DNA of 64,000 nucleotides from Candidatus Binatus sp. (GCF_036567905.1 NZ_DATCTO010000034.1:10085-74084); one strand, 5' to 3'. Numbered from the stretch's first letter, positions 30,720 through 52,603 are shown. Notes: generated from the sequence alone by a model not told the origin. A program made the numbers and translations.

Positions 30720-30721
30720 CG

Positions 30722-32014: not shown

Positions 32015-32016
32015 CA

Positions 32017-32773: not shown

Positions 32774-33748
32774 TCACTTGGGAATCGATGCGTCCCCGGG
32801 CACGGCAGCGATCGGCGCGTGGGCGGCGGACACGGCCGCTGCAGCTACGACCGGCTGTGCGCCTGTGATGTAGAAGCGAATGAGTTCGGTGGTGACCTGA
32901 GGGCCGCCGACAAAGGTGGTGCCTTCCTGCTTGAGCAGCCTGTAGGGCGGCGCCGCCTGGAAATAGAGGGTGTTTTTGGGAACTACCGGCTCGATGACGT
33001 GCAGGACGAAGCGCGGCCAGTTCGGCATTACCGTCGCGACATCGACTTGTGCGGTTACCTTGAGCGCGGGGAAGCTACCGGCCGGCACGGTGATCTGTCT
33101 GGACCGGTTGGCCCAAACCTCCTGACCTACGTAGCTGTAGGGCGTGATCTGCTGATGAAGCATACCTTCGGCGCCGTCGCGCGGCGCGCCGAGCACGCGT
33201 AGAAACGCCACCCACGGAACCGAGTCCGGATACAAGTCATGTGGCAGGTCTGCGGCCCCCGCCAGCCGCAACACCGTCGCATCGTTACGCCAGAACGTGT
33301 TCTGCAGCGCGCGACCATGATCGTACAGCGTCCATTGATACATGGTGCAACCCTGACGATGATTGGGAAACAGCCAGAATGCGACTTCGAACTGATAGGT
33401 CGATAGGGTGGTCACCTCGATATGGATCGTGTCGTCGTCGACCATTTCGTTCCACGACTTGACCCGGGTCAGGAGCTCGCCCGTACCGTCCTCTGTTTGC
33501 TGGGTTTCGTCTACCTCGGTGCTCGGCGGCGGGGTTATTATATCGGTGCCGGATTGTTCGCCGATCATCCCGTGACCGATCAGGCCGCGCGTCACAAGCC
33601 AGGCATCCGTTGCGCCACCTGCACTCGACTCTGTCCCCGGCGCCAGAACAACATCGGTGCCGCCCACGGCAGGCCATAGAATTAAAACTGCTGCCAGTAC
33701 GGTCAGCGATGGAATCAGAATCCAGAATCGGAACGATAAGGTCTTCAT
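32774..33748 (-). CDS. hypothetical exported/membrane-anchored protein
   Basis: ATG 33748 gives MKTLSFRFWILIPSLTVLAAVLILWPAV (signal/anchor). I could not recognise any family motif. It is co-directional with the biosynthetic operon. Confidence 0.5.
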   Translation of the reverse strand: MKTLSFRFWILIPSLTVLAAVLILWPAVGGTDVVLAPGTESSAGGATDAWLVTRGLIGHGMIGEQSGTDIITPPPSTEVDETQQTEDGTGELLTRVKSWNEMVDDDTIHIEVTTLSTYQFEVAFWLFPNHRQGCTMYQWTLYDHGRALQNTFWRNDATVLRLAGAADLPHDLYPDSVPWVAFLRVLGAPRDGAEGMLHQQITPYSYVGQEVWANRSRQITVPAGSFPALKVTAQVDVATVMPNWPRFVLHVIEPVVPKNTLYFQAAPPYRLLKQEGTTFVGGPQVTTELIRFYITGAQPVVAAAAVSAAHAPIAAVPGDASIPK

Positions 33749-34102
33749 TTTGAAACCCAATTCCTGGCCGACGAGCATCGACCGCAGCCTGGCACGCCTT
33801 TTGACGCATTTTAGGGGCCTGCTTAGCGCAAGTGCCCAAAACGCATACTGCGTGCCGGCGGCGGCTCTTCTACCTCGAGCAAAGTGTGGAGATGTGAGGA
33901 AACTCTCGGACGAGGTAGTTAAATAGTACACCAAATGGACGCGACGGGCAAAGAGCGTTGGAGAGGGAAGTGGAGTACGATTAGCGCTCAATCTCGGAGC
34001 GCGGCACGGGATCGACACGATCGCCCGCGGTGTTGTGGCCGGCCATCGACCGTCCCGGCTGGCACTGCCAGAAGCGAAAATGACAAATATACATTTTGGC
34101 GC

Positions 34103-34885
34103 TCACGCGGTACTTCGAAGTGGTCGCGGCCATTGCCAGCAGGACAAAGTCCAGCCGCGTCCTTCGACCGCAAGAGCAGCTACGTAGCCGGATGCGAGGG
34201 TCAACTCCTTCAAAGACCAACGACCGGCTTCGTCTGAATCTGGCTGGGTGCTTAACAACGCTGCAGGTTTTCCGGGAATGAGCGACACGTCGAACTGATC
34301 CAAAGGCAAAGAGAGTCCTTCGCCTCTCGCCTTGATGTAGGCTTCCTTGCGGGTCCAACAGAGGAAGAACGCGTATCTCTGCAAGTCTGTCGGGAGCGCA
34401 CGGAGTGTCGCAATCTCGTTGCGCGAGAAAAAACGCTCAGCGATCTGCTCGACTTCCAAATCGCAGCGAATGAATTCAAGGTCGATGCCGATCCCGCGAC
34501 CACGAGTAACCGCATAGAGGGCCACTCCGCGAGAGTGAGACATGTTAAAGCGGATAGCATCTCCGCCAGAGTCCCGGCTCAATGCGGGCTTTCCATAAGA
34601 ACTGTAACCGAAGGATAGGCATTTCGGTTCTCTATTCAAGTAGAAACCGAGTATAGCCCTAAGTACTCCGTGAGCGTTGATAAAGCGCTCGCGGTCCGTC
34701 CGAAAGTAAAACCGCTGGGCCCTCGTTTGCTCTTCTGCCGCAAGGGTATGCAGGAAGCTATCGCGCTGCGGCGGGAGCTCGTCCAGAAAGGCCCGCCAGA
34801 CATGTACTTCGTTACTACCTAATCTTATCGTCGCCGGTGGGAACCCCCACGGTGTGGGAGTTGAGGTGATGGGTAGTGTCTTCAT
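34103..34885 (-). CDS. Sfp-type 4'-phosphopantetheinyl transferase
   Basis: YGKPAL, FNMSHS, GIDLE, WTRKEAYIKARG motifs. Confidence 0.9.
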   Translation of the reverse strand: MKTLPITSTPTPWGFPPATIRLGSNEVHVWRAFLDELPPQRDSFLHTLAAEEQTRAQRFYFRTDRERFINAHGVLRAILGFYLNREPKCLSFGYSSYGKPALSRDSGGDAIRFNMSHSRGVALYAVTRGRGIGIDLEFIRCDLEVEQIAERFFSRNEIATLRALPTDLQRYAFFLCWTRKEAYIKARGEGLSLPLDQFDVSLIPGKPAALLSTQPDSDEAGRWSLKELTLASGYVAALAVEGRGWTLSCWQWPRPLRSTA

Positions 34886-34904: not shown

Positions 34905-35657
34905 TTATTGCAGCTGCTGAAAAAGCGCCCGAAGCAGAAGAGGCTGTTTCAAAAAGAAATGGTCGCCGGGAAACATCCGCAGCGAGAACGAAACACTCGT
35001 CTGGGCGCGCCAGGCTTCAAGATCGCTGTCGCTCACCTTGTTATCCTGCAAGCCGCCAAATGCGGAAATGGGACAGTTCAGGGGCGGCTCAGTCGAGTAC
35101 AGGTAGGTTTCGTACACCGCAAAGTCTGCCCGTAAGACAGGAAGCATGATTTCCATTAATTCCTCGTGGCCCAAAAGCTCGCTGGGCGTGCCATTCAGCC
35201 GCCGCAGCTCCATTAAAAACTCGCTATCTGGCAGGGTATGGATAAACGGCCCGCGATGAGGGATTTGAGGAGCACGACCAGCAGATACAAATAGGTGAAC
35301 AGGATGCACGCCGTACTGTCTTCGGATCCGGCGAGCGAGCTCAAAACTGACTAATGCTCCGAGGCTGTGGCCGAAGAAGGCAAAAGGCCTGTCCAGGAGT
35401 GGAGCCAGGGCTTGAGCGAGGGCCTCGACCAGAGGCGAGAGGTGAGTGAAAGGACGCTCCGTCATCCGAGTCCCCCGTCCCGGGAGTTGAAGTGGGCATA
35501 CCTCGACATCCGCCGGCAAATTGTCGGACCAGGTGCGAAAGATCAACGCGCCGGCTCCGGCGTAAGGGAAACAAAACAAGCGAAGGCGCGTCTTTGGCCC
35601 GAGTTTACGGTGTGAAATCCAGGGGTCGAAAGCAGCGGCGGTTGTCGAGCGGCTCAT
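34905..35657 (-). CDS. type II (editing) thioesterase
   Basis: RLFCFPYAGAGA...GHSLGALVSFELA... Confidence 0.9.
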   Translation of the reverse strand: MSRSTTAAAFDPWISHRKLGPKTRLRLFCFPYAGAGALIFRTWSDNLPADVEVCPLQLPGRGTRMTERPFTHLSPLVEALAQALAPLLDRPFAFFGHSLGALVSFELARRIRRQYGVHPVHLFVSAGRAPQIPHRGPFIHTLPDSEFLMELRRLNGTPSELLGHEELMEIMLPVLRADFAVYETYLYSTEPPLNCPISAFGGLQDNKVSDSDLEAWRAQTSVSFSLRMFPGDHFFLKQPLLLRALFQQLQ

Positions 35658-35691: not shown

Positions 35692-35931
35692 TTAACTCTT
35701 TGATGAATGGCGCTGTTTGTCGCGCTGCTCCATTTGTTCTCTCAGACTTAGCGGTCTCATGTCGGTCCACACTTCCTTAATATAAGCCAGGCATTCGGTC
35801 TTGGAACCGGTCTTGCCTGTGACCGTCCAGCCAAGAGGAACTTTCCTTTCGGAGGGCCAGATAGAGTACTGCTCTTCATGATTGACGACGACTCTGTATG
35901 TTGCCGAGTCTTCCCAGCCGTCACTATTCAT
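35692..35931 (-). CDS. MbtH-like protein
   Basis: ATG 35931 overlaps the NRPS stop (ATGA). [24 protein letters not shown]. Confidence 0.9.
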
Positions 35932-38900
35932 ATTGCATCCTTCATTGACCTTATCGGTGGATTGGCCCCATCGGCAAACCATCCTTCAGTCGCTTGCGCC
36001 TGATCGAGGCAAGCCCGTAGCTTCTCAGCCAACACTTCAACGTGAGGCTTGTAAACCATCGTTGCGTGATTACCCGGAACGATATGAACGTCAACTCCTC
36101 CAGCAGCCCAGTCGCTCCAACCCAAGGCCGGGTCTGACGAGGTTCCCGCAAGCTCCTGACCAGCCTTGAAGAGCGTGATTCGACCTGGGTAGCGATGCAG
36201 TGCGTAGTTCTGGGTGGCTCGAAAATCGGCTTTGCAGAGTTCGATGAATGGCTGAGCTTGGGAAACGTCGATATCCGAGGGCATTAGTCCGGCTCTTTTT
36301 GCGTGCTCGAGGACGCGCTCCAGCAGTTCGTGCTTTGGAAGGCGGGCGAGAGAATCGCGAAGGTCGAGCGAAAGACCGAAATAGCGGACAAAATCGATCA
36401 GCAGGCGCGCGTCAAAGTCCTCATCGTCGAGCTCCTCATCGGCAGTTGGGATCCGAGTATCCAGTAAGGCTAACAAAGCTACCGTCTGACCCTGAGCCTG
36501 AAACTGCTGAGCCATCTCGAGAGCTACGACGCCTCCCATGGACCATCCGCCCAAAAGATAGGGACCCCACGGCTGCACCGTCCGTAGCGCTTCGATGTAA
36601 TAAGCGGCCATGTCTTCGATGCGCGCGTGTGGTTCCTGCCCCTCCTCGAGTCCTCTTGCTTGTAGGCCATAAGAAGGCTGGTTGGACCCTAGGTAGTGCG
36701 CCAAGTGAACATAGGGGAAGACATGTCCACCGGCCGGATGTATCAAGAAGAAGGGCCGCCTGTTACCTCCCGGTTGAATAGCCACCAAAGATGAATGCGG
36801 CGGAACTTTGGCGTGCTGGTGGAGAATCTTCGCTAGATGCTCAACGGTTGCTCCCTGAAATACAGTGGCTAAGGGAACTTTCTTGCCCAGTCTCTTTTCT
36901 ATCAATGAGAACAAACGAACGGCTGCAAGGGAGTGTCCTCCCAGCTCAAAGAAATTGTCCGTCACGCCGATGGGCCTGATACCCAAAACCTCTTCCCACA
37001 GACTAGTGAGCTGGCGTTCCAAAGCGTTGCGCGGCGCTACGAACGACCTTCCCGGTTCAAAGCGTGCTCGCCCGGGCTCCGGCAGGGCGCTGCGGTTTAC
37101 CTTCCCGTTGCGCATCAAGGGCAAAGCACCGAGCGGCACGAAGACCGCCGGCATCATATAGTTGGGCAGCCTCTCCTTCAGAAAGACCCGCAGCTCGCTA
37201 GCCGTTGGCGGGGATTCCCCCTCGGCGACCACGTAGGCCACCAGCTTCTTCTCTCCGGGAGCATTTTCCCAAGCCAAGACAACAGTCTCGCGCACGGCAG
37301 GGTGTTGGCGAAGCGCTGCCTCGATCTCCCCGAGTTCGATACGGAACCCGCGAATCTTCACCTGATCATCAATTCGACCCAAAAACTCGATATTTCCGTC
37401 GAAAAGATAGCGGGCGAGATCCCCCGTCTTGTACAGTCGCGTTCCCGGCTCGCTGCTGAAGGGGTTAGGTACGAAATTCCGCGCAGTCAAATCGGGCCGC
37501 TTGAGATAACCTCGAGCCAGGCAGTCACCGCCAATATACAGTTCACCGGGAACTCCAACGGGAACCGGATCACCGTACTTGTTCAAAATATAGGTCTCCC
37601 GGTTCGTGAGGGGACGGCCGATGGGAATCCTATGGAGAGCCGAGGGCTCGCGAAGCCGTGAAGCGACCTCAAAGGCAGTTGCCGTAATGGTGGTCTCCGT
37701 CGGCCCGTAGGCATTGATTAGACGGATTGAACTCATCGGTGTTCGCTGCCATAAGTCGAGGAACTCGGGCAGCATCGTATCTCCACCGACGATGAAAACC
37801 CTGGGCTGAATATTTGGAACTAACTCCGAGACGTCTGCCCACTCTCTGGCCAATTCTTGCCAATAGCCGGTTGGGATATTGAGCACAGTGAGTCCGCACT
37901 CAGAACTCACTTTGTAAAAAGCCGTAGTACGCCATACGTCGGTAGTCATCATAACCAGGGTAGCGCCGACAATCAGGGTAGGCAGCATTTGCTCCAATGA
38001 TACATCGAAACTCAGTGAGGCAAACTGCAGCACCTTATCGCTTGAATCCAGCTCGTAGTACCGTTGAACACTAAGGCAGTGCGCCGCGATCGAAGCATGC
38101 GAAACGAGGACTCCCTTTGGCTGGCCGGTCGACCCTGAGGTATAGATTACATAAGCCAGATTCTCGGGCGTGGTTAAGCAGACCGGGTTTTCTTTACTCC
38201 TCTGGGTGATAACCTCCGAATCTGAATCCAGACAGACCACCTTTGCATGGTGTTCAGGCAATCCCACCAGCAACGCCTCCCGGGTGAGGATTACAGGGAC
38301 CTCGGCGTCTTCCAACATGAAAGCGAGCCGTTCCTTCGGATACGCTGGATCCAGCGGCAGGTAGACGCCGCCCGCCTTTAGAATGCCGAGCAGTCCAACG
38401 ACCATCTCCACGGATGGCTTGAGGCAGATTGCCACCGGTAACTCAGGGCGCACTCCCAGAAGGCGTAGATGATTCGCCAGTTGATTGGCCCGGCGGTTCA
38501 GTTCGTCGTACGTCAGCTGCTGATTCTCAAGTACTAACGCTGTCGCGTCAGGTGTTCGCGCGACCTGCGCCTCAAACAGTTGATGGATACACAGCCCTTT
38601 CGGACAATCAGCCCTGTTATCGTTCCAGTCCACCAGTAGTTGTTGTCGCTCTGTTTCGGTTATTAGGGGCAGGTCCGAGACGCGTCGCTCGGGAGTAGCG
38701 GCCACGGCCTCCAGTAGAGTCCTAAAACAACCAAGCATACGTGTAATAGTGACAGCCTCAAAGAGGTCCGTATTATATGCTAATGTACCGACTAGACCTT
38801 GATCGGTGTCCACGATATGCATGGTTAGGTCAAAGTGAGTCGTACCGGTGTCCACTTCTACTGGGCTCAGGCTCAATCCCGGCAGTTCCACCGGCTGCAG

Positions 38901-41900
38901 CGAGGCATTCTGCAGTACGAACATCACCTGGAAGAGCGGGTTGCGGCTTAAATCTCTCGTCGGGTGCAATTCCTCTACCAGCCTCTCAAAGGGCAGGTCC
39001 TGATGGGCATACGCTCCCAGACACACTTCACGTACCCGGCGTAATAGATTCCGGAAAGTGGGATTGTCGGAGAAGTCAGTGCGCAGAACAAGCGTGTTTA
39101 CGAAAAAGCCTATTAGGCCTTCGATCTCCAGGCGGTTACGGTTGGCGGTTGGCGTTCCTACAACGACGTCGTCTTGATCCGTGTATCCGTGCAACAAAAG
39201 TTGGAATGCCGCCAGTAGGGTCATGAACAAAGTAACCCCTTCCTGGCGACTTAACGCCTTCAACGCATCGCCCAAGGCCTTAGGCAATAGAATAGCTTGG
39301 TGCGCACCGTGAAAGGTCTGTAGAGCCGGCCTCGGATGGTCCGTGAGGACCTCGAGCAGCGGAGGCGCGCCAAGCAATTGGTGCTTCCAATAGGCAAGCT
39401 GAGTGTCCAGGACCTCGTCCTGCAACCAAATTCTCTGCCAATGAGCAAAATCTGCATATTGGATGGGTAGCTCAGGCAGCGATGCGGGCCTATCGGAACA
39501 AAAGGCATCGTAGAGTACCGCCATCTCCCGGATCAGGATTCCGGTTGACCACCCGTCGGAAACGATATGGTGCATCGTCAGCAGCCCGACGTGCTCGGCT
39601 TCACCCAGCCGGAGCACTGTAGCCCGCACGAGCGGACCTTCGGCCAAATCGAAGGGCCGCCGCGCCTCGTTGGTCGCAAGCCGCTGGACCTCGCTCTCCC
39701 GCTCGGGCTCAGGCAGCTCTCGCAAATCTACTATCGGCAGCGTCAACGATAGAAGCGGTGCGATAACCTGAACCGGGCGACCATCCACAATGGCAAAGGT
39801 CGTTCGCAGGGCTTCATGGCGCTTCACGATTTCGTCGAGACTTTGCTTCAGCGCCGCCATGTTGAGTGGTCCCTTGAGACGGACGGCGGCAGGGAAATTA
39901 TAGACAGAGCCGCCCGGCTCGAGCTGATCGATGAACCATAGCCGCTGTTGTGCAAAGGACAGAGGTAGTTCCCCGTCCCGAGGAACAGGCACGATGGGGG
40001 AAGCCAGTAGTCCTGCTCCGCAGCCTACATCAATGCTTTCAGCCAGGCCGGCAACGGTGGGCGCTTCGAACAGGCGGCGCAGCGGCATCTCCACCTGGAA
40101 GGCTTCGCGGATTCGGGAAACGACCTGGGTAGCCAACAGCGAGTGCCCACCTAGCTGAAAAAAGTTATCGTAGATGCCCACCCGTTCGACGCTCAGGACC
40201 TGGCTCCATATCGTGGCGAGCAGCTCTTCCGTAGGCGTGCGACATGCCACGAATACCTGGTCCAGCTCGGGCCGCCGGTCATCGGGTGTCGGCAGTGCGC
40301 GGCGGTTTACCTTACCGTTAGCGGTCAGCGGGAAGGCGTCCAGTAGCACGAAGACCGCTGGCACCATGTGCTCGGGCAGCTTGTCCTTTAGAAAACTGCG
40401 CAGCTCGCTGGCGGTGGGACGTGACTCTCGCTCGGCGACTACATAGGCCACCAGCCGTTTCGCTCCGGCCCCAACTTCCTGAGCCTGTACAATAGCCTGC
40501 AGCACGGCCGGGTGCTGTCCGAGTGTCCCCTCGATTTCGCCAGGCTCGATTCGGAACCCGCGGATCTTGACCTGATGATCGCTACGACCCAGGAACTCGA
40601 TGTTTCCGTCCGGCCGGTAGAGCGCGAGGTCCCCGGTCTTATACAGCCGCGCTCCCGGCTGCCCGCTGAAGGGATCTGGAATAAACTTCTCAGCGGTCAA
40701 ATCAGGGCGCCTGACATAGCCTCGCGCCATGCCCACGCCGCCGATGTACAAGTTACCCGCGACGCCGATCGGAAGCAGGCGAAGCAGGTCATCTAAAATA
40801 TATGCTTGTGCGTTCGGTATAGGTCGTCCGATAGGAGCTGCACAATCAGGGCTGTATTCTTCGCACGGCCAATATGTAGAATCGATGATTGTCTCAGTCG
40901 GCCCATACACATTGTACAGCTTCGCCCCAACGCGGCTTTGGAGCCGCGTGACGATCTGGGGCGCCAACGCCTCACCGCCGCACATCACAGCGCGCAGGGC
41001 GAGGCTTTCGTCGAAGGCGGGCTCCTCAACCAGAAGCCGGAGAAGCGATGGCACGCAGTGAAGAATTGAGATTCGCTCGCTGCGGATGGTGTCTGCCAGG
41101 TATCGGCTATCACGATGACCGCCAGGTTCCGCAACTATCAGGGTTCCTCCCGCCAACAGCGTCGCGAGCAATTCGCGTCCAGCGGCATCGAAGGTGATGG
41201 GAGTCTTCAAAAGACAGCGGTCGCTGGATGACAGCTCCAGTGTCTCCATTATCCAGTTGACAGCATTAGTCAGTCCGCCGTGTTCGACCATTACTCCCTT
41301 CGGCTGTCCGGTCGAACCTGAAGTGTAAATCACGTACGCGAGGCTTTTGGCGGTTGCGTTAGCCTGCGGGATGTTTTCGCCATGCCTGGCGATGGTTTCC
41401 CAGTCCGAATCCACGCACACCACCGCGATTCCAAGCTCCGGCATAATGTTCCGCAGAGTTTTCTGAGTCAGCAGCACCTGCGCGCGAGCATCTTCCATCA
41501 CGTAGGCTATGCGCTCTTTGGGATACTCCGGATCCAACGGCACGTAAGCTCCGCCCGCCTTAAGAATGCCAAGGATCCCCACGACCATCTCCAGCGAACG
41601 GTCCATGCAGATTGCGACTGGAACTTCCGCTCCGACACCGAGACCTTGCAGGTGATACGCAAGTTGATTGGCGCGAGCCTCGAGTTCAGCGTAGGTCAAA
41701 CGGCGGTTCTGAAAAACGAGCGCTACATTCTCTGGCTGTTGCCGGGCCCGTTGCGCGAAGAGCTCGTGGATACACTTGCTTTCAGGGTAGTCGGTTCGCC
41801 TATCGTTGAACTCAACCAGCAGCTGGCGCTGCTCGTCGGGGCTCACGATATCCAGATCTGCGATTGGCGATTCCGGATTTGCGCAGACACTCTCGAGCAG

Positions 41901-43196
41901 AGTGCGGAACTCTTGCGCCAGGCGGTCGACATCCTCCGCGCTAAAAAAGCTGGAATCGTAGTGAAGCTCCGCGACCAGAAGGCCCCCTCGCTGCGGGCAG
42001 GAGAGTTTCAACTTGAACCGGTCAAAACAGCTGTATTGCTTCTGAATGGAAAATATCGTGGCGCCCTCGGTATGATTCGCGTCCGCATCCTGGAATTCAA
42101 AAGCTACCGGAAAGAAGCGGCACGGCTCGATTTCGGCATCCAATCGAGTAAGTTGTTCAGAGTCGAAATACTCCTGCCATTCAACGGCTTCTCGCGCCGA
42201 TCTATTAGTCCGTTCCAGAACTTCACTGAACCGAAGCTGCTCTTCGAGCTGGAATTGAACAGGCAAAGTCTTTGCAAACGGGCCCAGCGCTTCCTGCAGC
42301 CCTTCGTAAGTACGCCCATCGCACGCCAAGCCGACCACAAAGTCTGATTCGCCAGTGAGACGCCAGAGCAGGATTTGCCAACAAGCCAGGAAGAACGCAG
42401 AGGCCGAAGCATCATACCTGGCCACGAGCTTTTTAATCTTCGGGGTCAACTCAAGATTGACCGGCGACGCCAGAATCCGGGGCTCGAAGGCCGCCCTTGC
42501 GGAAGGTCGCTTTTCGAAAGAAAACTTCGGAACGCGGAAAGCTGAGCCGTCCGCTTCGCGCCAGTGTTTATTTCCTTCGTGCGTTTCTTCCGATTCCAAC
42601 AAGTTATTTTCCCACTCGGCGAGATCGGCATATTGACTGGGGTCGCCTGATGGTTCCTCGCAACGTACGAAACCGGAATAGCGGCGGCTAATCTCACGCA
42701 CCAGAATCCTGAGCGATGCCGCATCCGCACACAGCGATGGCAGATTGACGAGCAACATGTGCCGGTCGGCCGCAAGGGTCAGCAAAGAGATGCGCAGAAC
42801 CGGACCGTTCGCAAGGTCGAAGGGAATCCGGCCAACCTTCTCAAACAGCGCCTCGATTTCCGCCTCTTGGCGTGAGGTGTCCCGGTTGCTCAAGTTGCAT
42901 TCCTCTATCCAGGGCGCACTTTGCTCGTTCACCGCCTGGAGAGGAATGTTTGTTCCCTGCGGACAACGAAAGCCGGTTCGGAGGATCTCGTACCGGTCGG
43001 AGATGTCCCGCAGGACAGCCTTTAGAACCTGCAGGTTGAGGCTGCCCTCGATGAGGACGGCGCATTGCGCACGATACGGCAGTTGGTCGCCGGCCTGCTG
43101 CAGTGACCACAGATGCCTCTGCTGAGGTGAAAGCCGGAACCCTTCGATCACGTCCATTTGCATTCGAGTAATTCTACTTTCGCGCGACGGCTTCAA
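35928..43196 (-). CDS. bimodular NRPS: C*(non-canonical)-A-T-C-A-T-TE
   Basis: 2422 aa, counted by hand. C* spans about aa 15-455 (nt 43154-41832), with [12 protein letters not shown] where HHxxxDG is expected. A1 is aa 475-975 (41774-40272; [28 protein letters not shown]-like, GKVNR). T1 is GGHS(1019)L. C2 is aa 1075-1510 (39974-38667; [10 protein letters not shown]). A2 is aa 1535-2040 (38594-37077). T2 is GGHS(2089)L. TE is aa 2145-2400 (36764-35997; GGWS(2219)MGG). Confidence 0.95.
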
Positions 43197-44757
43197 TGCT
43201 CGGTTGCGACGGTATGAGGTTCTTGCGCTTGACGTGTTTCAGTTTTTGAAGATTAACTTCCTGCTGCTCCTTGCGGACAGCAACCCGTTGCTGCCGGTCC
43301 GCTGCGGCGAGCGTTAGCTTGAGTGCGTCCAGTCTGGTGGTCGGTTCTTGAAGTATGCGGCGCAGAAGTATTTCGAAATGCTGCGACATGCGGGCAATCG
43401 TCGCGTTATCAAACAGGTCGCTGTTGTAGCGCATCGAGGCGGAAAGCGATTCGGGCGTTTCGATTATCAACAACACCAGGTCGAGAGTGGCGGCGCGGCG
43501 TTCGAGCGCCACCGACTCCATAACAAGTCCCCCGGAATTCATGCGCAGCCCTGTTTCGGCCGCCAGAAATGGAGACGCGCCCTGTTGCGCGATCCGGTGG
43601 GGCTTGTCGAGCACGAACATCACCTGGCACAGAGGTGGGCGGCTGAGTTCGCGGGGCGGCCGTAGGCGCTCAACCAATAGAACGGTAGGGTAATCCTGAT
43701 GCTCGAGAGCCGCCAGCACATTGAGGCGAACCTGGCCAAGAAATACCCCGAACGCAGGGTTCCCGGAAAGATTCGCCCTTAAGACTACGGGGTTCGTAAA
43801 GAGGCCGACTATACCTTCGAACTCCGCCCGGCTCCTACCCACCATAGGAGTTCCCACCAATAGGTCTTCCTGGCCGCTATTGTAAGAAAGCACCACCTGG
43901 AACGCTGCCAGAAGCACCATGTACAGCGTCGCTCCATGAGCCTTGGCGAGAGCCTTGAGCCCGGAGCTCAGCTCCGCGTCCATAGTGAAGTCGTGCGATG
44001 CCCCCTGATAAGTCGGAACCGCCGGACGCGGCCGATCGGTCGGAAGGTCCAGGATGGGCAGCTGGCCGGCCAGTTGCTCGCGCCAGTATGCCCATAGCCG
44101 CTCTCCATCCGGGCCTGCCAGCATCTCGGCCTGCCAACGGACATAGTCAGTGTATTGCAGATCAAGAGGAGGCAGATGCGCTTTCACACCGGCGCTTTCC
44201 GCCGGGTATAGGACGCCGAGTTCATCCAAAAGTATCGCGAGAGACCAGAAGTCGATCGCTATGTGATGCACGACCAGCAGAAGGATATGTTCCCGCGCCG
44301 AGCGCATGATCAGGCTCACGCGCAGCAACGGCCCTCGTTCCAGATCAAACGGGCGATACGCTTCCTCGAGCAGCCGGGCGTTCAGTTCGTCGCCGCTCCA
44401 GGCCGAGCCATCCACTTCCTCGAGGCTAACCTTCAGGTGTTCGTGGACCTGCTGGGCCGGTTTGCCGGAGTGTGCGGGAAAAGTAGTGCGCAGCGAAGGA
44501 TGGCGATCGACCAACCTCTGCAACGCGCGTCGCAGTGCCGCAACATTTACGCCGGACGAGATACGTGCCGCAAAATTGACGTTGTAAACCGCGCTATCCG
44601 GCGCCAGTTGATAAAGAAACCAAATGCCCTGCTGATTGTACGAGAGAGGATAAAGTGATTTGGAGTCGCGCGCCTGCTTGCGAAGAAGCTCGGCAAGGAG
44701 CGCCCGCTTTTCGCCCGGTGAAAGATCGGTGATTCGCCTGGAAGTGCTGCTATTCAC
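43174..44757 (-). CDS. free-standing condensation (C) domain protein
   Basis: 527 aa; LSYNQQGIWFLYQ..., active-site HHIAIDFWS (aa 164-172) and a C-terminal charged helical tail. It overlaps the PKS stop by 4 nt and the NRPS start by 23 nt. Confidence 0.9.
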   Translation of the reverse strand: MNSSTSRRITDLSPGEKRALLAELLRKQARDSKSLYPLSYNQQGIWFLYQLAPDSAVYNVNFAARISSGVNVAALRRALQRLVDRHPSLRTTFPAHSGKPAQQVHEHLKVSLEEVDGSAWSGDELNARLLEEAYRPFDLERGPLLRVSLIMRSAREHILLLVVHHIAIDFWSLAILLDELGVLYPAESAGVKAHLPPLDLQYTDYVRWQAEMLAGPDGERLWAYWREQLAGQLPILDLPTDRPRPAVPTYQGASHDFTMDAELSSGLKALAKAHGATLYMVLLAAFQVVLSYNSGQEDLLVGTPMVGRSRAEFEGIVGLFTNPVVLRANLSGNPAFGVFLGQVRLNVLAALEHQDYPTVLLVERLRPPRELSRPPLCQVMFVLDKPHRIAQQGASPFLAAETGLRMNSGGLVMESVALERRAATLDLVLLIIETPESLSASMRYNSDLFDNATIARMSQHFEILLRRILQEPTTRLDALKLTLAAADRQQRVAVRKEQQEVNLQKLKHVKRKNLIPSQPSIEAVARK

Positions 44758-47700
44758 TTTCCACCGACTTCCTCTTTAGCCAATAGATCAGCGAGCAACG
44801 AATTCACTTCCTCATCCGAATACTGGTCGAGATTATCCAACAGATGCTCATCGACGCCGCCGTTTCCTTGCTGCCCCTGGAGGTGGCCATTTGCCGAGGC
44901 AAGAGCAGCTGATGAGTCAGGAGTCTCAGATGTAAGCAGATGAAGCAGTTGCGACGCAGCCTGTTCGACGCTGGGTCCCGAGAGAAACGTAACCATCGGC
45001 ACGTTCACGCCCAGCTCCACCGCGATCCGGTTCTTCAACTCGACCGCCATCAAGGAGTCCAGTCCCAGATTGCTGAGCGGTTGCTCTAGGTCCAGCCTGG
45101 ATGCGGGCAACCCAAGCACACGAGCCACCAGCTCAGTCAGATGGGACCGGATTAATTGAAGGCGTTCCGCCGGCTCTGCGGCAAGGATCGTATTTCGCTT
45201 CTCGGCGGAATGACCCGCTTGGGGCGAGTTGTCTGCTTCCTCACGTGCGAGCTCAGAAAGCAGCGGTGGTTGTGTTCCCGCAGGAAAAAACTGGCGATAG
45301 AGCGCCCAGTCAACGGGTACGGCCGCGACCTGGGTCGAGCCTTGACGAAGCAGGCGTTCCATCACGTCCAGCGCTTGTGCGGGTGCGATGCTCCTGATTC
45401 CCGCCAGCGCGAGGCGCGCGGCAAGGCGTTTTCCTCCCGCAGTTTCCGCGAAGCCCAATCCGCTCCATGCTCCCCAGTTGATGCTCAGCGCCGGTTTGCC
45501 TAGCGCCCGTCGATGATGAGCCAGTGCGTCGAGGAAGGCGTTTGCCGCCGCGTAGTTCCCCTGGCCAGGCTGGCCTAAGAGGGAACCGGCGGACGAAAAA
45601 AGTACAAAGAAGTCCAAGGGGTCGTCTTTGAGGAGTCGATCCAGCAGCCAGCCGCCGATCATCTTGGGCCGCATGACCGAATCCATTGCCGCCGTATCGA
45701 GTTGCGCCAGCAGTCCGTCCTGCAATACTCCCGCCGCGTGCACTACGCCTCGGATCGGCGGCCAACCCTCGGCTCGAAACTCATCTATGTAGGCGCGTAA
45801 CTGTCCTTCATCAGCCACGTCCACCGAGGCCAGATGCACGCTCGCTCCCAAAGCTTCCAGCTCGCGAATCGCGGCAATTTGATGGGCCAGGCGGCTTCCC
45901 GGTTCCGCTGAGTTCCATCGCGCGCGCGGTGGAAGCCTGGTGCGTCCCATAAGGATCAGCCGGCGCGCCCCTTGCTCTACCATCCAGCGGGCGACCGAAA
46001 GGCCCAGGTCTCCGAGCCCTCCGGTGATCAAGTAGCTGCAGTCAGCGCGCCAGCCAAGTGGAGCGCGCTGCGTGGCGCAACGAGGTTTGCGGATCAAGCG
46101 GGCTGCGTGTCGCCGACCTTGCCGGAACGCAATCTGATCCTCGCCGTCCGGAGCGGAGATTTCTTTCCACAACTGATGAGCGGCATCGCCGGGAACCGAA
46201 GGCCTGGGTTCCAGGTCCATCAGACCTCCCCAGAACATGGGATGCTCCTGAGCGACAACGCGACCCAATCCCCAAAGAGGCGATTGAGCCGTGTCCAGGG
46301 GCAAGGTCTCTTCCCCCGCCGGCTGTGCGCCGCGTGTGATCAGCCACAGGCGGGGTAAGTTACTGCGTTCGACCCGAGCCAGCTCCTGCACTAACTGTAA
46401 TACACTGTTACAGCCAAGAGTCTGAACTGTCTTCAGCGAAGCGACGGTAGAGTCCTGTGGAAGGGACGCATCAAGGCTCCAGAGATGCACAACCGCCCGG
46501 CAGATCGGCTGATCCTGCGCCAATGCCGCATCGAGAAGCTGTCGCATGTCCTGCGGTCGTTCGGCATTGATGCGAAAATGCTCGCCGTCCGTGCGCTCGT
46601 ACGATTCGCCGCGCGTGACAACGATGATGTTGTCTCCTTGCGCCTTGATCAGTGCTCCAAGCTTTTCTCCGACGCCGCTGCTGTCGGCAAAGATAAGCCA
46701 GTTGCCCGGGCTGGCGGGCGCGGACGGTTCCGGGGCCGGCTGCTCATTCGAACGCTCTCTTGGCTGCCACTGAAATTCGTAGAGCCAGTCGTCAATATTC
46801 TCATCGGCGCCGCGCTTTGGATCGCGGCCGATGCTATCGAAGCGCAGTCCTACAATTTCGACCGCAACATGGCCAGTTTCATCCAGGAGCCGCACGTCTC
46901 CCTTGACGCTGCCGGCGTCGGGTTCTTGCAGATGGGCGTGACTCCAGAGATGCAAAGCCGGAGCACCATGGACCCGAATCTCATCTATATGAGTGGGCAT
47001 GTAGGCGCCCTGTTCGTCGTTTTCCGCCGCTTGAGCGGCTACACCCGCTCCTAGGGTCTGAAAGCAAGCGTCCAAGAGGGCAGGGTGGAATTGACAGGCG
47101 TCGAACTCTCGATGCGATCCATCGGGGACTTGCACTTCACCGAGCATTTCACCATTGCATCGCCACAACTGAGTAATGCTCTGGAAAGACGGGCCATAGG
47201 CGACGCCACTTTCGCCAAGCCTGAGGTAGTAGTCTTGTCCTGAGATCTGTTCCGAGCATCGAGCCTGGACTTGAGCCGGCGCTTCGGGTTCGATAACCGA
47301 GGCAATGCCGGGGGCCGGCTCAGGACAAATCTTTGCCGTCGCATGTAGCGTCCACGATCGATTGGCTTGCTCCGCGTCGCGCGGGCAACTGTAGATATGA
47401 AGGGATGCGGCGGCGTCGGCGCCGGGAGAGAGGATCACCTGAAGGGTCAGAGTTGCGCCGTCGGGGACGAAGAGCGCTTTGCGGAATTCCACATCTTTCA
47501 GCACAAAGGACTGCGACGGGAACGCCTCAGCCGCGGCCTCCAACGCCATCTCGACATAGAGCGCGGCGGGAAGCACCGCGAGTCCTTCGACGCGATGGTC
47601 ATCCAGGTAGGACAGCGCGCTTCTGTTCAGAGCGCTCTCCCAGAAGTGGGTTTCGGTCTGCGCGGATTTGAAATGCCGGCCGAGAAGAGAATGCTTCGCG

Positions 47701-50700
47701 GCTCCATCGCTCGAGACGTACTGCAATCGACCGCGGATATCTCCCGCCGGCGGGTCCATCCAACAACGCTCCCGATCCCATGGATAGGACGGAAGCTGAA
47801 CGGATCGGCCCGGTGTAGGATAGATGCGGCTCCACTCGATCGGATAACCCGAGGTATAAAGGGCGCCCAGCGACCCGGCTAATACTTTAGCTTCTTCTTC
47901 CTCGTGCCTTAGCGACGGGATTACCGCGCCTTCTATCCCGGCGCGGCGAAATTCCTGCTGAATGCTACTGAGTAGAATGGGATGCGGACTGAGCTCCAGA
48001 AAAATGTCATGTCCGTCTTTCAGCAAGCGCTGAACCGCAGTTGAAAAGAGGACCGGTTCTCTGAGGTTGCGGCTCCAATAGGGCGGGTCGAAGCTCAAGC
48101 CGTCGGCAAGCTGGCCGGTTACCGTAGAGTAGATCGGCAGCGGAGCGGGCCGAGGCTGTAGTCCTTCCAGCGCGCGCTCCAGGTCAGCGCGCAGAGGCTC
48201 CATCTGCGGACTATGAGCGGCAAAATCAACCTTGATTATTCGGCAGAAGATGTCCTGGCGCTGCAATCGACTCACGATGGTTTCGAGCGCTGCGGGATCT
48301 CCCGACAAGACCGTCGAAGTGGGACCGTTGCTGACCGCGATCGATACGCGATCTTCGAAGCCGGCAATGGCGCGCCGAGCGTCCGCGATGGAAAGGTCCA
48401 CCGCAGCCATCGCTCCGCGCCCAATCGCCGGCTTGACGAGTAGGCTGCGGCTGCATATCACCCGCGCCGCATCTTCGAGGCTTAGCGCGCCGGCGACGTG
48501 AGCGGCCGCGACCTCGCCCATGCTGTGACCCACCACCGCGTGCGGCACGATACCCCGGGAACGCCACAGGGCCGCAAGCGCCACCTGAATCGCAAACAAA
48601 GCCGGCTGCAGGACGTCGACTTCGGTCAGCCGGGAGCGGGCCGCATCGGTGGCGGAGAGTTCCGCAAGCAAGGACCAGTCTCCGTGGGGGCGCATCGCGA
48701 GGTCACAGCGTTCGATGGCTTCGGCAAAGGCGGCGTCATGCTGCAAGAGCGCCCGTCCCATCCCAAGCCATTGGGAACCTTGCCCGGGAAATACAAAGAC
48801 CAGTTTTCTCTGGCGATCGGAAAGCTTGCGGCCCGAAGACAGCCCGGGACAAAGCTCTCCGCGGGCATAAGTCTCAAGCGCATCGGCCAATTGCGATGTT
48901 GAATTGCCGGTCGCGGCGAGCCGGTACTCGTGATGACTTCGCCGCGTGCCAGCCGCGTAACAAATGTCGTAGGGCGGCGCCGTCAACTGCGGATCGATCA
49001 GGAAGTCGTGATAGCTTCGCGCGAGCGCCTGCAGCGCCGGCGCGCTGCGTGCCGACAAGGGCAGCAGGTAGGTGGACGCGGCATCGCGGGTTCCGTTCTC
49101 GCGTTGCGCAGCACGCATTTCCGAATCGAGGGTAGGAGCCGCTTGCATGACCACATGGGCGTTGGTTCCACCAAAGCCGAATGAGCTGACTCCGGCGAGC
49201 AGGGCTATATCCGGCTGCGCAGGCCATGGGCACAGCGCCGTGTTCACGCGCAGCGGGAGTCGATCGAAAGGAATATGAGGATTGGGCTCCTCGAAGTGCA
49301 GGCTTGGTGGAATCTCCCGATGGTGAAGCGCCAGCGCCACCTTGATTAATCCAGCGATACCGGCTGCGGCCTCGAGATGACCCAGGTTGGTTTTGACCGA
49401 GCCAAGGAGACATGGGCGGTCAGGAGGACGATCGAGAGCTAGCACCGCGCCCAAGGCCTTAGCCTCGATAGGATCGCCCAGGAGCGTGCCGGTGCCATGG
49501 GCCTCGACGTATTGAACATCGCCGGGCGAGACCGCGGCGCGCCTATAGGCTTCTCGCAGCACAGCTTCCTGCGCTTGAGGATTAGGAGCCATGAGTCCGT
49601 TGCTGCGTCCGTCCTGATTCATAGCACTGCCGAGAATGACGGCGTAGATCGGATCGCGATCGGCCAAGGCTTTCGATAGCGGTTTGAGGACGACGACTCC
49701 GGCGCCCTCGCTGCGGACGTAGCCGTTGGCGCGCGCGTCGAAGGCTTTGCAGCGCCCGTCGGGCGCCATCGCACCGGCCTTGCTGAAATTGATCGTAATT
49801 GCAGGCGACAGGATCAGGTTCACGCCGCCGGCCAATGCCAGAGTTGACTCTCCGCTTCTCAGGCTGTTGCAGGCTTGGTGGACCGCGACGAGTGACGATG
49901 AGCAGGCAGTGTCGAGCGCAATGCTGGGTCCGCGGAAATCGAATACGTAAGAGATACGGTTGGCCGCGATACTCAGGGCATTGCCCGTGCCGGCATAGGC
50001 GTCAATACGATCCAGGTCATTGAATTGAATCCGGCCGTAATCGTTGTTCGAGATGCCGATGAACACACCGGTGGGCGTGCCCGCAAGGCGCTCACGCACC
50101 TGTCCCGCGTCTTCCAGCGCTTCCCATGTCAACTCGAGTAGCAGGCGTTGCTGGGGATCCATGCGCGCGGCTTCTCGCGGCGAGATACCAAAGAAGCGCG
50201 CATCGAACTGATCGACGTGCTCGAGAAAACCACCCCAGCGCGTGATAATTTTGCCCGGGACCGCGGGATCAGGATCGTAAAAATCGTGCAGGTCGAAGCG
50301 ATCCGCGGGAACTTCCCGGATCGCATCGACTGCGTTGCGAAGCAGATTCCAGAAAGCTCGCGCGTCCGCTGCGCCAGGAAAGCGGCAGCCTATCCCGATG
50401 ATGGCGATCGCTTCGGCATTGGCCTCCCGAACCCGGCTCGCTTCGGCGGCCGGCGGCGACGGGCTCGACGAGTCCGCCAAACCGCGGGCGAGAGCTTCGA
50501 TGGTCGGAAACTCATATGCCAACTCGGCGGGCAGGTCTCGTCCCAGCCATTGCGCAAGGTCGCCGGAGAGACTGACCAACTCCGTCGATCCCAGTCCGTA
50601 GCTGGCGAATGGTTCCCCGACGTCGATCTCGTTCGCTCCGATTTCCAGCAGCTCGGAAAGTTTGGACACCAGCCAGGCCTGGATCGCCGCCGCGCCGGGT

Positions 50701-50780
50701 GTGGGATTGCCTTGCTCGCGCTGCCCATCGCGTTCCGCGTCATGCCGGATGGCGCCGTTAGTTTGATTTCCGGCCATCAC
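44754..50780 (-). CDS. type I PKS module: ACP-KS-AT-DH-KR-ACP
   Basis: 2008 aa, counted by hand. ACP1 is aa 31-101 (YGLGS). KS is aa 122-548 (DTAC(293)SSS, EAH(428)GTGT, NLGH(468)LE). AT is aa 660-950 (GHS(753)MGE; VDFAAHS). DH is aa 1030-1315 (H(1062)[24 protein letters not shown]). KR is aa 1355-1775 ([12 protein letters not shown] at the LDD position, SSAGS...Y(1743)AAAN). ACP2 is LGLDS(1909)L. There is an acidic C-terminal docking-like tail, and no ER or MT. Confidence 0.95.
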
Positions 50781-52603
50781 TCACTCTTCGCGCACTGTTC
50801 CAGCGTCCCGTTCCGAAACCTGGCCTCGCAAACACGGCGCTGAACCTTGCCGCTGGGGGTCTTGGGAATGTCGCCAGCCCTCAATAGTACGACCGCATGC
50901 ACTCGCACGTCATGCTCTTCTGCCACTGCGCGGCGAATGGCCCGGCTCACCGCGTCGAGATCCGCCGGAGACCGCCCGTTCGGATGGCTCGCGTGTGATC
51001 TGTCGTGCGATTCGCCGTTAGACTGGTGGCGCTCCGATTGGTAGTGGCGCTCCATTTCGGCGGCGATGATCAAACGCTCCTCGTCGGCGACATCGACCGA
51101 AAACGCCACACAACAACCCGGCCGCACTGCCGTATGGCTTTGCTCGACGGTCAATTCGATGTCGTGTGGGTAAAGGTTGCGACCGCCGATGATGATCAGA
51201 TCCTTCAGCCGGCCGGTGACAAATAGCTCACCGTCTCTCAAGAATCCCAGGTCTCCGGTGCGAAGAAACGGCCCTTCACCAGTATCTGCCAGGTAGGCGT
51301 GGAAGATGAGTTCTGTTTCCTCAAGCCGGTTCCAATAGCCCCGGGCCACGCTCGGGGCGGACACCCAGATTTCGCCCAGCTCATCAGGTGCACAGGCAGT
51401 CGATGATTCAGGATGAACGATAACGATTTTCGTGTCCGGCATCGCGCGACCACATCCAACCCGCGTGCGGACGTTCAACTGCTGGTCGGAGGTCTCCACG
51501 ACGCCGTTGTGTTCAAGCGCCGTCGCCTGGGTCGTGCACAGGACGGGCGCATCTTCTACGACTCCGCCCGATACGATCAGCGTGGCTTCGGCGAGCCCAT
51601 AACAGGGATAGAAGAAGTTTGGGCGGAAGCCACAAGCTGCGAAGGCCGCGGCAAACCGTTTCAGGGTGTCCGCACGGACCGGCTCGGCGCCGTTGTACGC
51701 CACCTTCCAATTGCTGAGGTCCAGACCGTCGCACTGTTCCGGAGTAATCTTGCGAGCGCATATTTCGTACGCGAAATTCGGGCCTCCACTTACAGTGGCT
51801 TCATAGCGCGAAACCGCCTGAAGCCACCGTACCGGCCGCTGAAGAAAGGACTGCGGAGGCATGAGAACGCACCCACGTCCTCCATACAGTGGCTGGATAA
51901 TTCCATTGGTAAGTCCCATATCATGGAAAACCGGCAGCCATGTCACGGAGACAGTGTCCGACGTAATCTCGAAAGCTTGGCTGATGTGGGCCGAGTTCTC
52001 GATAAGATTCCCATGACTGACCATTACGCCCCTCGGTACAGCGGTGGAGCCCGAGGTGTATTGGAGCAAAGCGAGGGTATCGCTGGTCGCCCCAGGGTTT
52101 CGCCAGTCCTGCGCCGCACCGCTGGGAACCTTGTCGGTGGCCAACCACTGTATTGTCTGCAGTTCTGGAGCTTGCGCGAAAAGGCCCTCAATCTTGGCCA
52201 GGATCGATGACGTGGTCAGCGCCAGCATCGGTTGAGCATCGTTTGCGATGGTGCGAAGCCTCGGGAGAGTCCGCTGCGGCTGCGCCATATTCGGCGGGGG
52301 CGTCGGGACGGCAACAACCCCGGCATATAAACATCCAAAAAAAGCCGGGATGAACTCAAGACCCGCGGGATAGAGCAATAGGGCTCGCTCCCCGCTTGCT
52401 CGGTAGCTTTGGAGCAACGCACCAATAGTGCGTGCCTGCCGGTCCAAGGCCGCGAATGTCAAATTCGCTCCTTCGATCTCTCCGTCGGCCAGGTAAGTGT
52501 AGATCCGCTGCTCTGGCTGCTGGAGCGCCCGCCAACGAAGAAGTTCGACGAGAGTAGAAGCTTTGGCGGTAGTTCGACTCACCCCTAGCTGATTCGGTTG
52601 CAT
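50777..52603 (-). CDS. fatty acyl-AMP ligase (FAAL)
   Basis: 608 aa; STLVELLRWRALQQPEQRIYTYL...LTFAALD...LQYTSGST...GDLGFLRDGELFVTGRLKD. It overlaps the PKS start by 4 nt. Confidence 0.9.
   Translation of the reverse strand: MQPNQLGVSRTTAKASTLVELLRWRALQQPEQRIYTYLADGEIEGANLTFAALDRQARTIGALLQSYRASGERALLLYPAGLEFIPAFFGCLYAGVVAVPTPPPNMAQPQRTLPRLRTIANDAQPMLALTTSSILAKIEGLFAQAPELQTIQWLATDKVPSGAAQDWRNPGATSDTLALLQYTSGSTAVPRGVMVSHGNLIENSAHISQAFEITSDTVSVTWLPVFHDMGLTNGIIQPLYGGRGCVLMPPQSFLQRPVRWLQAVSRYEATVSGGPNFAYEICARKITPEQCDGLDLSNWKVAYNGAEPVRADTLKRFAAAFAACGFRPNFFYPCYGLAEATLIVSGGVVEDAPVLCTTQATALEHNGVVETSDQQLNVRTRVGCGRAMPDTKIVIVHPESSTACAPDELGEIWVSAPSVARGYWNRLEETELIFHAYLADTGEGPFLRTGDLGFLRDGELFVTGRLKDLIIIGGRNLYPHDIELTVEQSHTAVRPGCCVAFSVDVADEERLIIAAEMERHYQSERHQSNGESHDRSHASHPNGRSPADLDAVSRAIRRAVAEEHDVRVHAVVLLRAGDIPKTPSGKVQRRVCEARFRNGTLEQCAKSE

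Follow-up and report, generated by a model that had tools for sequence, protein, structure and literature searches.

Interface (I) domains were reportedly described by Reitz et al. in 2019 in NRPS modules for β-hydroxy amino acids. They are a recently recognised and poorly understood subtype of the condensation (C) domain and are now profiled in antiSMASH 8 (PMC12230676). In the characterised cyanochelin B cluster the β-OH-Asp module CcsL comes after the TauD protein CcsK (PMC12628792), and a preprint on cyanochelin C names the domain a β-OH-Asp-specific interface domain. As far as its citation in PMC13638107 goes, the I domain of glidomide is reported to be essential, being indispensable for GlmF-dependent hydroxylation, whereas in myxoglucamide, where MxgA (FAAL-ACP-C-Ox) is followed by MxgB (I-A(Glu)-PCP), a 2026 report describes an I domain without the HHxxxDG motif that is dispensable in vitro, also for hydroxylation, the His-His C domain alone being enough for condensation (PMC13638107).

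The cluster analysed here lies on the minus strand of a 64-kb stretch of DNA from Candidatus Binatus sp., the whole of which is referred to as the window. Its NRPS opens with a C-like domain, denoted C*, that resembles the I domains of cyanochelin (CcsI/CcsL), glidomide and MxgB in having a C fold without His-His placed N-terminal to A-T, a His-His C domain ahead of it, either free-standing or the last domain of the preceding protein, and a position in the same clade of our tree. The cluster further resembles that of myxoglucamide, which starts FAAL-ACP-C, and may share with it the loading of Glu. It is unlike the known examples in that no αKG/TauD dioxygenase is fused to the C domain, encoded between the genes or present in the window, in that its first A domain is not of the Asp, His or Asn type, and in that the donor is a full reducing PKS module in a host of the phylum Binatia.

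Organization of the gene cluster

The assembly line starts with a fatty acyl-AMP ligase (FAAL; 608 aa, 50777-52603; Pfam AMP-binding, NCBIfam PRK05850 at 450 bits and FadD32 at 433 bits), the predicted activator of a lipid starter, and continues with a type I PKS of 2008 aa (44754-50780) for which Pfam matches to two PP-binding stretches, ketoacyl-synt, Acyl_transf_1, PS-DH and KR give the order ACP-KS-AT-DH-KR-ACP. The PKS is predicted to add one malonyl unit, so that its C-terminal ACP (Pfam PP-binding, aa 1881-1942 of 2008) would carry a 2-enoyl or 3-hydroxy acyl chain. It is followed by the gene for a free-standing C protein (527 aa, 43174-44757), in which Pfam places a lone C domain (Condensation, 351 bits, aa 35-489, 43291-44655) ahead of a basic C-terminal tail (aa 490-527, 43177-43290), and by the NRPS gene, organized as I-A1-T1-C2-A2-T2-TE. 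C* occupies 41832-43157, and the remaining NRPS domains, assigned by Pfam, are A1 (40311-41759), T1 (40038-40223), C2 (38634-39974), A2 (37092-38564), T2 (36822-37049) and TE (36012-36755). Known Pfam domains leave no residue of the free C protein, the PKS or the NRPS unassigned.

The longest open reading frame of the NRPS (35928-43196) begins with TTG, and the 23-nt overlap with the free C gene, which the initial annotation had cited in favour of a complex, depends on that start. We regard the overlap as a start-codon artefact because the ATG at 43163 gives an N-terminus (MQMDVIEGF...) in line with those of homologues; the gene would then span 35928-43163 and leave a 10-nt gap after the TAG stop of the free C gene (43176-43174). 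On contigs that encode an identical free C protein, the called NRPSs are 2409-2411 aa long.

The A1 specificity code, DARHCGVID(K), is not an Asp, His or Asn code; we take it to resemble the Glu/Gln codes of published tables, and the A1 substrate would be Glu-like. The A2 code reads DVELVGAIT(-). Downstream of the NRPS are an MbtH-like protein (79 aa, 35692-35931; from its translation and from PF03621 precomputed on the Logan contigs with the identical free C protein), a type II thioesterase (34905-35657; Pfam Thioesterase, 167 bits), an Sfp-type phosphopantetheinyl transferase (34103-34885; Pfam ACPS and AASDHPPT_N) and a protein at 32774-34018 with a likely start at M91, giving ~324 aa and an N-terminal hydrophobic anchor. 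The last of these has no match in Pfam and NCBIfam scans; it adjoins Binatia clusters downstream and its position is kept in 12 related loci.

Fold and motifs of C*

C* is a full-length domain of ~440 aa, with aa 9-453 aligning to the C domain of the NCBIfam model PRK05691 and aa 22-450 aligning to TycC6 in a PDB sequence comparison. Its AF2 model (pLDDT 84.4, pTM 0.86) superposes on solved C domains with TM 0.8-0.85. In a three-way alignment of C*, free C and C2, the PSLCAD stretch of C* (aa 151-161, nt 42714-42746) lines up exactly with HHIAIDFWS of free C (aa 164-172, nt 44242-44268) and with HHIVSDGWS of C2, and the alignment contains no alternative His-His near the motif; misalignment of LPSLCAD, raised earlier as an objection, is thus not the explanation. 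The Asp of HHxxxD is retained, core motifs C6 and C7 are degenerate, and a conserved acidic stretch lies at nt 42585-42635. The arrangement recognised in the initial annotation, in which a PKS ending in an ACP is followed by a lone C domain with HHIAIDFWS and then by a second, full-length C-like domain lacking HHxxxDG, is thereby borne out by Pfam, the alignments and the predicted fold.

The free C protein fits a C rather than an E domain, both by its Pfam Condensation score and by its best matches, which are LCL-type regions of PvdL and AusA, and its Binatia orthologues all read HHI[AV][IV]DFWS. For the terminal C domains that precede C*, an identity as E domains, under which C* would be a DCL, was likewise rejected on account of their LCL-type motifs (TMHHIISDGWS).

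Relationship of C* to interface domains

The N-terminus of CcsL (BAU16061) from the cyanochelin B cluster is 40.5% identical to C* (E 6e-97) and shares NLPSLCAD, whereas ordinary C domains show at most 30% identity with E no better than 1e-44. Matches of ~30% identity on proteobacterial plasmids (Variovorax, Azotobacter) proved to be ordinary internal C domains and were not retained as relatives. Because C* is homologous to the cyanochelin modules and has the same architecture, we assign it by sequence to the I domains, a known His-less subtype of C-like domain. It has the C-superfamily fold at full length, lacks the HHxxxDG histidines, groups in the tree with the domains that open TauD-associated Asp modules and sits directly N-terminal to an A domain with a real C domain upstream, in the order C then C*-A-T.

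Relatives of C* are encoded at more than 587 loci in species-representative genomes, and more than 100 homologues share [LS]P[AS]LCAD. Among 102 related domains His-His is absent throughout, and a single one, which reads HALCAD, carries a His at either of the two positions, so the missing histidines are a family trait and not a sequencing accident. Placing the C domains on a phylogeny, as had been proposed, united all C* copies in a single clade, which a long branch sets off from canonical C domains and in which the Binatia group is nested. C*-A-T opens the polypeptide (no more than 60 aa from the ORF N-terminus) in 94 of 96 assessable copies, and in the same proportion a terminal or free C domain lies within 6 kb upstream; His-His is kept in 93 of these 94 upstream domains, and a TauD-type dioxygenase is encoded between C and C* in 71 of the 94. 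The A domains that follow mostly carry DLTKLGHVG (Asp), some having His-like or Asn-like codes. The donor upstream varies between FAAL-ACP-C, PKS-T-C, NRPS A-T-C and a free C. The suggestion that C* might belong to a known and characterised PKS-to-NRPS interface domain is therefore correct in that the subtype is named and partly characterised, but not in its restriction to PKS-to-NRPS junctions. The usual partner of the subtype, a TauD-type β-hydroxylase, could not have been guessed from a cluster that has no hydroxylase.

The strong conservation of LCAD, including the HHxxxD Asp, could indicate that C* is a non-canonical catalyst acting through the Cys/Asp of LCAD in dehydration, ester formation or Michael-type thiol addition to an enoyl chain, with free C doing a different job. 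DH and KR in the PKS make an α,β-unsaturated acyl donor plausible, and other His-poor C-like domains are catalytic, CmodAA of AmbE being a weak PDB match. However, about a quarter of the family has I, V, L, S, N, W or M in place of the motif Cys (SALIAD in 14 cases, PALVAD in four, and others), C6 and C7 are degenerate, the family tracks TauD hydroxylases and no particular donor chemistry, and the MxgB I domain is dispensable (PMC13638107). Catalysis by the Cys/Asp of C*, as first envisaged, is in our estimation very improbable.

Other atypical C domains are less close. X domains of glycopeptide assembly lines have the motif HRxxxDD, unlike C*. The X domain of teicoplanin (PDB 4TX2, 4TX3, 6M7L) is likewise an inactive C-like platform for trans-acting oxygenases, and its structure matches the prediction for C* with TM ~0.8; however, X domains occupy the C-terminal end of the last module, beyond its T domain, and recruit P450s (Oxy), whereas C* is N-terminal, is ~23% identical and falls in a different clade, and no P450 was found in the window. 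Starter C domains (such as RzmA Cs, PDB 7C1H-7C1U, and, in PvdL, the first C domain behind FAAL-T) are also N-terminal C-type domains facing an acyl donor and share the fold with TM ~0.85, and the best NCBIfam match of C* is the region of PRK05691 that follows its FAAL-like N-terminal part, to which the FAAL of the window itself matches. Starter C domains keep His-His and themselves catalyse N-acylation of the first amino acid, whereas C* has no such His and is accompanied by a separate His-His C domain; since it also clusters with TauD-associated domains, a degenerate starter C, as the match to the first C region of PRK05691 might have implied, was rejected. CmodAA (AmbE, PDB 7R9X) is similarly an atypical C domain tied to amino-acid side-chain modification, but its sequence match to C* is weak (E 2e-9), it works on the peptide of the donor side, downstream of the Ser/Thr module, and it is neither N-terminal nor paired with a terminal C domain. 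A match to PDB 8JBR had hinted at a C-like domain at the start of McyA, following the terminal C domain of McyE; 8JBR is McyA module 2 (C-A-PCP), and this parallel was dropped.

The basic tail of the free C protein

The core of the tail, NLQKLKHVKRKNLI (nt 43213-43254), belongs to a segment of the form ...[DE][RK]QQQ...QKLKxxKRKx[IV] that is present after essentially every C domain upstream of C*/I, across phyla and with or without TauD. The charged tail that had been noted in this protein is thus a conserved feature of C domains ahead of the C* type. In relatives, the same segment serves as linker to a TauD domain fused to the protein, and stand-alone TauD proteins again carry a K/R-rich variant of it at their N-terminus. 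We infer that the tail is a candidate docking peptide, for which co-occurrence suggests contact with the I domain. The earlier proposal that free C and C* work as a pair is very likely.

Absence of a nearby hydroxylase and selection on C*

No TauD homologue was found by phmmer (E<10) in the 64-kb window, nor within the ±10 kb flanks at 16 of 17 related Binatia loci, and Pfam scans found no oxygenase among the scanned ORFs of the window. At locus L016, the 5.5 kb that separate C from C* likewise encode no oxygenase, but a PIN toxin and a DUF1206 protein. This suggests that the hydroxylase was lost rather than relocated in the Binatia lineage, although the genome, of which the window covers 64 kb, could carry a hydroxylase or other partner at another site. 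The I domain might accordingly recruit a trans-acting β-hydroxylase or other tailoring enzyme from outside the window, so that residue 1 would be modified, for example to β-OH-Glu. The need for the glidomide I domain in hydroxylation, as that work is cited in PMC13638107, would fit such a role, as would the persistence of purifying selection on C*. A distant partner is also conceivable, since at seven loci outside Binatia, with A domains of the Asp or Asn type, no TauD lies between C and C*. Against this, distant encoding would be atypical, given the 71 of 94 loci with the hydroxylase directly between C and C*; no TauD is present in the regions searched; and the cluster is otherwise self-contained, with exporter genes and those for the PPTase, the MbtH protein and the type II thioesterase. 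We therefore regard recruitment from outside the window as unlikely.

C* is under purifying selection, with dN/dS of 0.16-0.38 in seven orthologue pairs, some of which have dS near saturation. These values exceed those of free C (0.11-0.19) and C2 (0.10-0.19), and C* evolves faster than any other domain of the assembly line, its dN being 1.5-3.5 times as high as in free C, which indicates that constraint on it is relaxed. The highest dN of all domains, together with the dispensability of the I domain of myxoglucamide in vitro (PMC13638107), would be consistent with C* being a functionless relic of a β-hydroxy-amino-acid module, tolerated since its removal would disturb NRPS folding. However, dN/dS stays well below 1 even in the pairs near saturation, C* is complete and frameshift-free in well-assembled orthologues, and RLSPQQ, LCAD and EWxNxLLESEE survive a divergence within Binatia down to 50% identity, so that a relic without function is distinctly improbable.

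Discussion

Our results favour, with moderate confidence, a model in which C* is a non-catalytic scaffold or docking partner, the free C protein forms the bond in trans and the hydroxylase has been lost. The FAAL and PKS would produce an acyl chain one ketide longer, held on the C-terminal ACP, and free C, its His-His intact, would act in trans to join this chain to a Glu-like residue loaded by A1 on T1. C2, A2 and T2 would then attach residue 2, and the TE would release an N-acyl dipeptide. The view that a single catalytic C domain is needed between the polyketide and amino acid 1 is upheld, and docking or scaffolding, the first of three options offered for the additional domain, is probably the right one. 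The I domain would form no bond; it would fill the place usually taken by a cis C domain against the A domain and serve as a landing platform for the trans-acting C domain, probably via the conserved basic tail. A dead C fold may be kept next to A1 because C domains have been reported to boost the activity of their cognate A domains (bioRxiv 10.1101/2023.11.13.566838). In most relatives the same platform would also host a TauD-type β-hydroxylase acting on the T-bound amino acid, and its loss from the Binatia lineage would have left only the split-module junction, C and then I-A-T.

This scaffold model has to be set against the report, as cited in PMC13638107, that the glidomide I domain is indispensable for hydroxylation, which would make hydroxylase recruitment and not C docking the core role. 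More tentatively, the split-module junction might itself be the conserved core of the I-domain system, with C docking by its QKLKxxKRK tail and the hydroxylase an optional third partner that reuses the tail motif. This generalisation, which we regard as possible but doubtful, fits the report that the MxgB I domain is dispensable for hydroxylation.

The I-domain class itself is known; what is unusual is a Binatia lipopeptide cluster that keeps an I domain without a nearby hydroxylase gene. The Binatia clade is set apart by having no dioxygenase in the regions searched, an apparently Glu-like A1 code and a C* under purifying selection. For genome mining this calls for caution, as an I-domain match alone predicts neither a β-hydroxy amino acid nor a siderophore. 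The conserved tail motif could serve as a natural docking pair in the engineering of split-module NRPSs. If the split-module reading is true, the Binatia clade would be a natural experiment that separates docking from hydroxylase recruitment. By keeping an I domain and a dedicated upstream C domain with no hydroxylase nearby, it offers a clean system for other roles of I domains, for which A-domain support, docking of a C domain in trans and gating of chain transfer are candidates.

Results

The cluster, encoded on the minus strand, comprises in order a FAAL (50777-52603), a type I PKS (ACP-KS-AT-DH-KR-ACP; 44754-50780), a free C protein (43174-44757; 527 aa, one condensation domain followed by a 38-aa tail), an NRPS (C*-A-T-C-A-T-TE; 35928-43196 as longest ORF) and then an MbtH-like protein, a type II thioesterase and a PPTase. 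In 12 Binatia versions of the cluster, the next gene downstream of the PPTase encodes a conserved ~324-aa protein (32774-34018, minus strand; likely start near 33748) with a hydrophobic anchor at its N-terminus; it matches nothing in Pfam or NCBIfam and may be an exported pathway component. A LolA-like protein, two MacB/FtsX-type permeases and an ABC ATPase adjoin the cluster on the plus strand (27682-32760); going by this adjacency, they are likely to form a lipopeptide export system.

The initial annotation correctly described two C domains, the second His-less. When C* is aligned with both the free C (motif HHIAIDFWS) and C2, the internal C domain of the NRPS, an 11-residue His-less stretch of C* falls exactly on HHxxxDG, and there is no alternative His-His nearby. 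C* is full length, with aa 9-453 covered by NCBIfam and PDB alignments, and its AlphaFold2 model (pLDDT 84.4, pTM 0.86, from a 12-sequence alignment) matches solved C domains at TM 0.8-0.85. The 23-nt overlap reported between the two genes arises only if TTG at 43196 is the start. An ATG at 43163 yields MQMDVIEGF..., in agreement with homologue N-termini, and leaves a 10-nt spacer behind the stop codon (TAG) of the free C; the NRPS measures 2409-2411 aa in gene calls on contigs encoding an identical free C protein. Translational coupling of the two genes is dispensable, since in one MAG (locus L016, 2570-8015) they are separated by a 5.5-kb insertion, whose contents include a PIN-domain toxin and a DUF1206 protein.

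The type of C* is the interface (I) domain of Reitz et al. 2019, reportedly introduced there as a non-canonical C-superfamily member linked to siderophore β-hydroxylases, and its membership of the I-domain clade is very probable. The opening domain of CcsL (BAU16061; Leptolyngbya sp. NIES-3755 plasmid 2) is 40.5% identical to C* (E 6e-97) and contains NLPSLCADA; CcsL is preceded by CcsK (BAU16062), a TauD/TfdA-type protein (TauD). The D-threo-β-OH-Asp residue of cyanochelin B has been assigned to CcsK/CcsL (PMC12628792), and the preprint on cyanochelin C uses the term "β-OH-Asp-specific interface domain". NRPS Motif Finder (PMC10212144) also lists the I domain as a category, and antiSMASH 8 (PMC12230676) provides a profile for it. 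In glidomide biosynthesis the I domain is reported to be indispensable for GlmF-dependent hydroxylation (cited in PMC13638107). For myxoglucamide (MxgA, FAAL-ACP-C-Ox; MxgB, I-A(Glu)-PCP), coupled condensation and hydroxylation proceeded with just the His-His C domain, the I domain was dispensable in vitro, and the authors concluded that I domains have context-dependent roles (PMC13638107). In substance, then, C* is a known, characterised subtype with published functional data, an outcome that the initial annotation had itself listed as counting against its reading.

A search of a 5.8-billion-protein collection with C* returned 192 relatives at E<=1e-10, and among the best 120 of these, which were aligned, nearly all that cover the motif position carry [LS]P[AS]LCAD there. 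A cryptic catalytic role of the LCAD Cys/Asp, to which this conservation might point, is very improbable and is weakened by the replacement of the Cys with I/V/L/S/N/W/M in about one quarter of family members. Scanning one genome per species gave more than 587 loci encoding C* relatives, the best 80 of which belong to Binatia, many cyanobacteria (Nostoc, Microcoleus, Scytonema), Acidobacteria and single Chloroflexi and Actinomycetota MAGs. Annotation of loci with HMMs made from the window's own domains gave 102 bona fide C* copies, 96 of them assessable. C* begins within 60 aa of the ORF start and is followed by A-T in 94 of the 96, and in 94 of the 96 another C domain, either the last of the preceding protein or free-standing, lies within 6 kb upstream; His-His is kept in 93 of these 94 upstream domains (typically TMHHIISDGWS). 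Because the upstream donors vary (FAAL-ACP-C, PKS ...KR-T-C, NRPS ...A-T-C or free C), the recurring unit is "...carrier-C ] [ C*-A-T..." and is not specific to PKS-NRPS junctions. The free C of the window (44242-44268) and its Binatia orthologues always read HHI[AV][IV]DFWS, in which Phe replaces the Gly of HHxxxDG; Gly is likewise replaced, by L, I or A, in several cyanobacterial C domains that precede I domains.

A ~345-aa protein or domain with the sequence of a typical TauD/TfdA Fe(II)/αKG dioxygenase lies between C and C* in 71 of 94 junctions, either encoded on its own or fused C-terminally to the upstream C domain. In these loci, the A domain after C* mostly carries the Asp code DLTKLGHVG, with smaller groups of DSALVGEVW (His-like) and DLTKIGEVG (Asn-like). 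The order FAAL, PKS, free C, I-A-T-C-A-T-TE is kept across 17 related Binatia loci; among the matches listed, the closest relatives (83-86% identical) are Candidatus Binatus soli UBA7539 and an "uncultured delta proteobacterium" MAG. Within ±10 kb, a TauD homologue occurs in L013 alone among the 17. A phmmer search of the 64-kb window for TauD gave nothing at E<10, Pfam and NCBIfam scans found no oxygenase among the other ORFs of the window, and domain annotation left no stretch of the megasynthases unassigned that could hide one. A hydroxylase or other partner encoded elsewhere is unlikely. Secondary loss of the hydroxylase is favoured by a neighbour-joining tree, in which the C* domains together make up a single clade, separated from canonical C domains by a long branch, with the Binatia group, TauD-bearing L013 included, nested within it, although support is weak. 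Hydroxylase-less I domains also occur beyond Binatia, since four Nostoc and Halotia loci with Asn-type A domains (DLTKIGEVG; L029, L037, L038, L064) have no TauD between genes or within ±10 kb.

Throughout the Binatia clade, the A domain beside C* (A1) has the code DARHCGVID(K), which is not an Asp, His or Asn code. Published codes include DAWHFGGVDK and DAKDLGVVDK for Glu and DAWQFGLIDK for Gln, beside which we take the A1 code to be Glu/Gln-like. Its Arg suggests a substrate with an acidic side chain.

The charged tail noticed on the free C proved to belong to a motif (...[DE][RK]QQQ...QKLKxxKRKx[IV]...) that follows essentially every C domain preceding an I domain, in all phyla, as the linker into the TauD domain in fused versions and as the end of the C protein in split ones. 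The Binatia free C retains it (NLQKLKHVKRKNLI) although no TauD follows. In L019-L083 (e.g. L026 8937-9983, L041 17942-18971), a similar K/R-rich motif stands at the N-terminus of stand-alone TauD proteins, which suggests a common docking or linker peptide that was copied at the gene split. I domains contain a conserved acidic stretch (17 residues in the consensus, an 11-residue counterpart in C*), and a docking contact between tail and I domain is an attractive reading of this co-occurrence.

Pairwise Nei-Gojobori comparison of the window with seven orthologous clusters gave dN/dS of 0.16-0.38 for C*, 0.11-0.19 for the free C, 0.10-0.19 for C2 and 0.17-0.25 for A1, dN being highest in C* among all domains. 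C* is intact even in lineages with dS near saturation, and is clearly under purifying selection, with relaxed constraint but no decay; that it is a tolerated relic, as the relaxation might be read, is improbable. L004, L007 and L011 were left out; their NRPS and PKS ORFs are in pieces on MAG contigs, probably through assembly frameshifts and not as real pseudogenes. In L012 and L014 (~10001-11330), identity to the window is just 55% in the C* segment, against 75-91% in the flanking free C, A1, C2 and TE, and the dS of C* is higher as well, which suggests domain-level recombination or a burst of I-domain divergence.

Discussion

The mechanism that we cautiously favour is one in which the free His-His C would condense the ACP-bound acyl chain, probably 2-enoyl because the PKS contains KR and DH, in trans with amino acid 1 on the adjoining carrier T1. 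The I domain would be a non-catalytic C fold that preserves the usual C-side partner of the A domain, which fits the reported boost of A-domain activity by cognate C domains (bioRxiv 10.1101/2023.11.13.566838), and would give the trans C a surface on which to dock. In relatives a hydroxylase shares this platform; in the window lineage it would have been lost, and the TE would release an N-acyl dipeptide as the product.

The domain type of C* is already known; what is new is a conserved, hydroxylase-less, non-Asp C to I-A-T junction in Binatia. This junction is useful for telling apart two roles of I domains, docking or scaffolding and the recruitment of a hydroxylase; as the Binatia version shows, an I-domain match alone does not predict a β-hydroxy amino acid.
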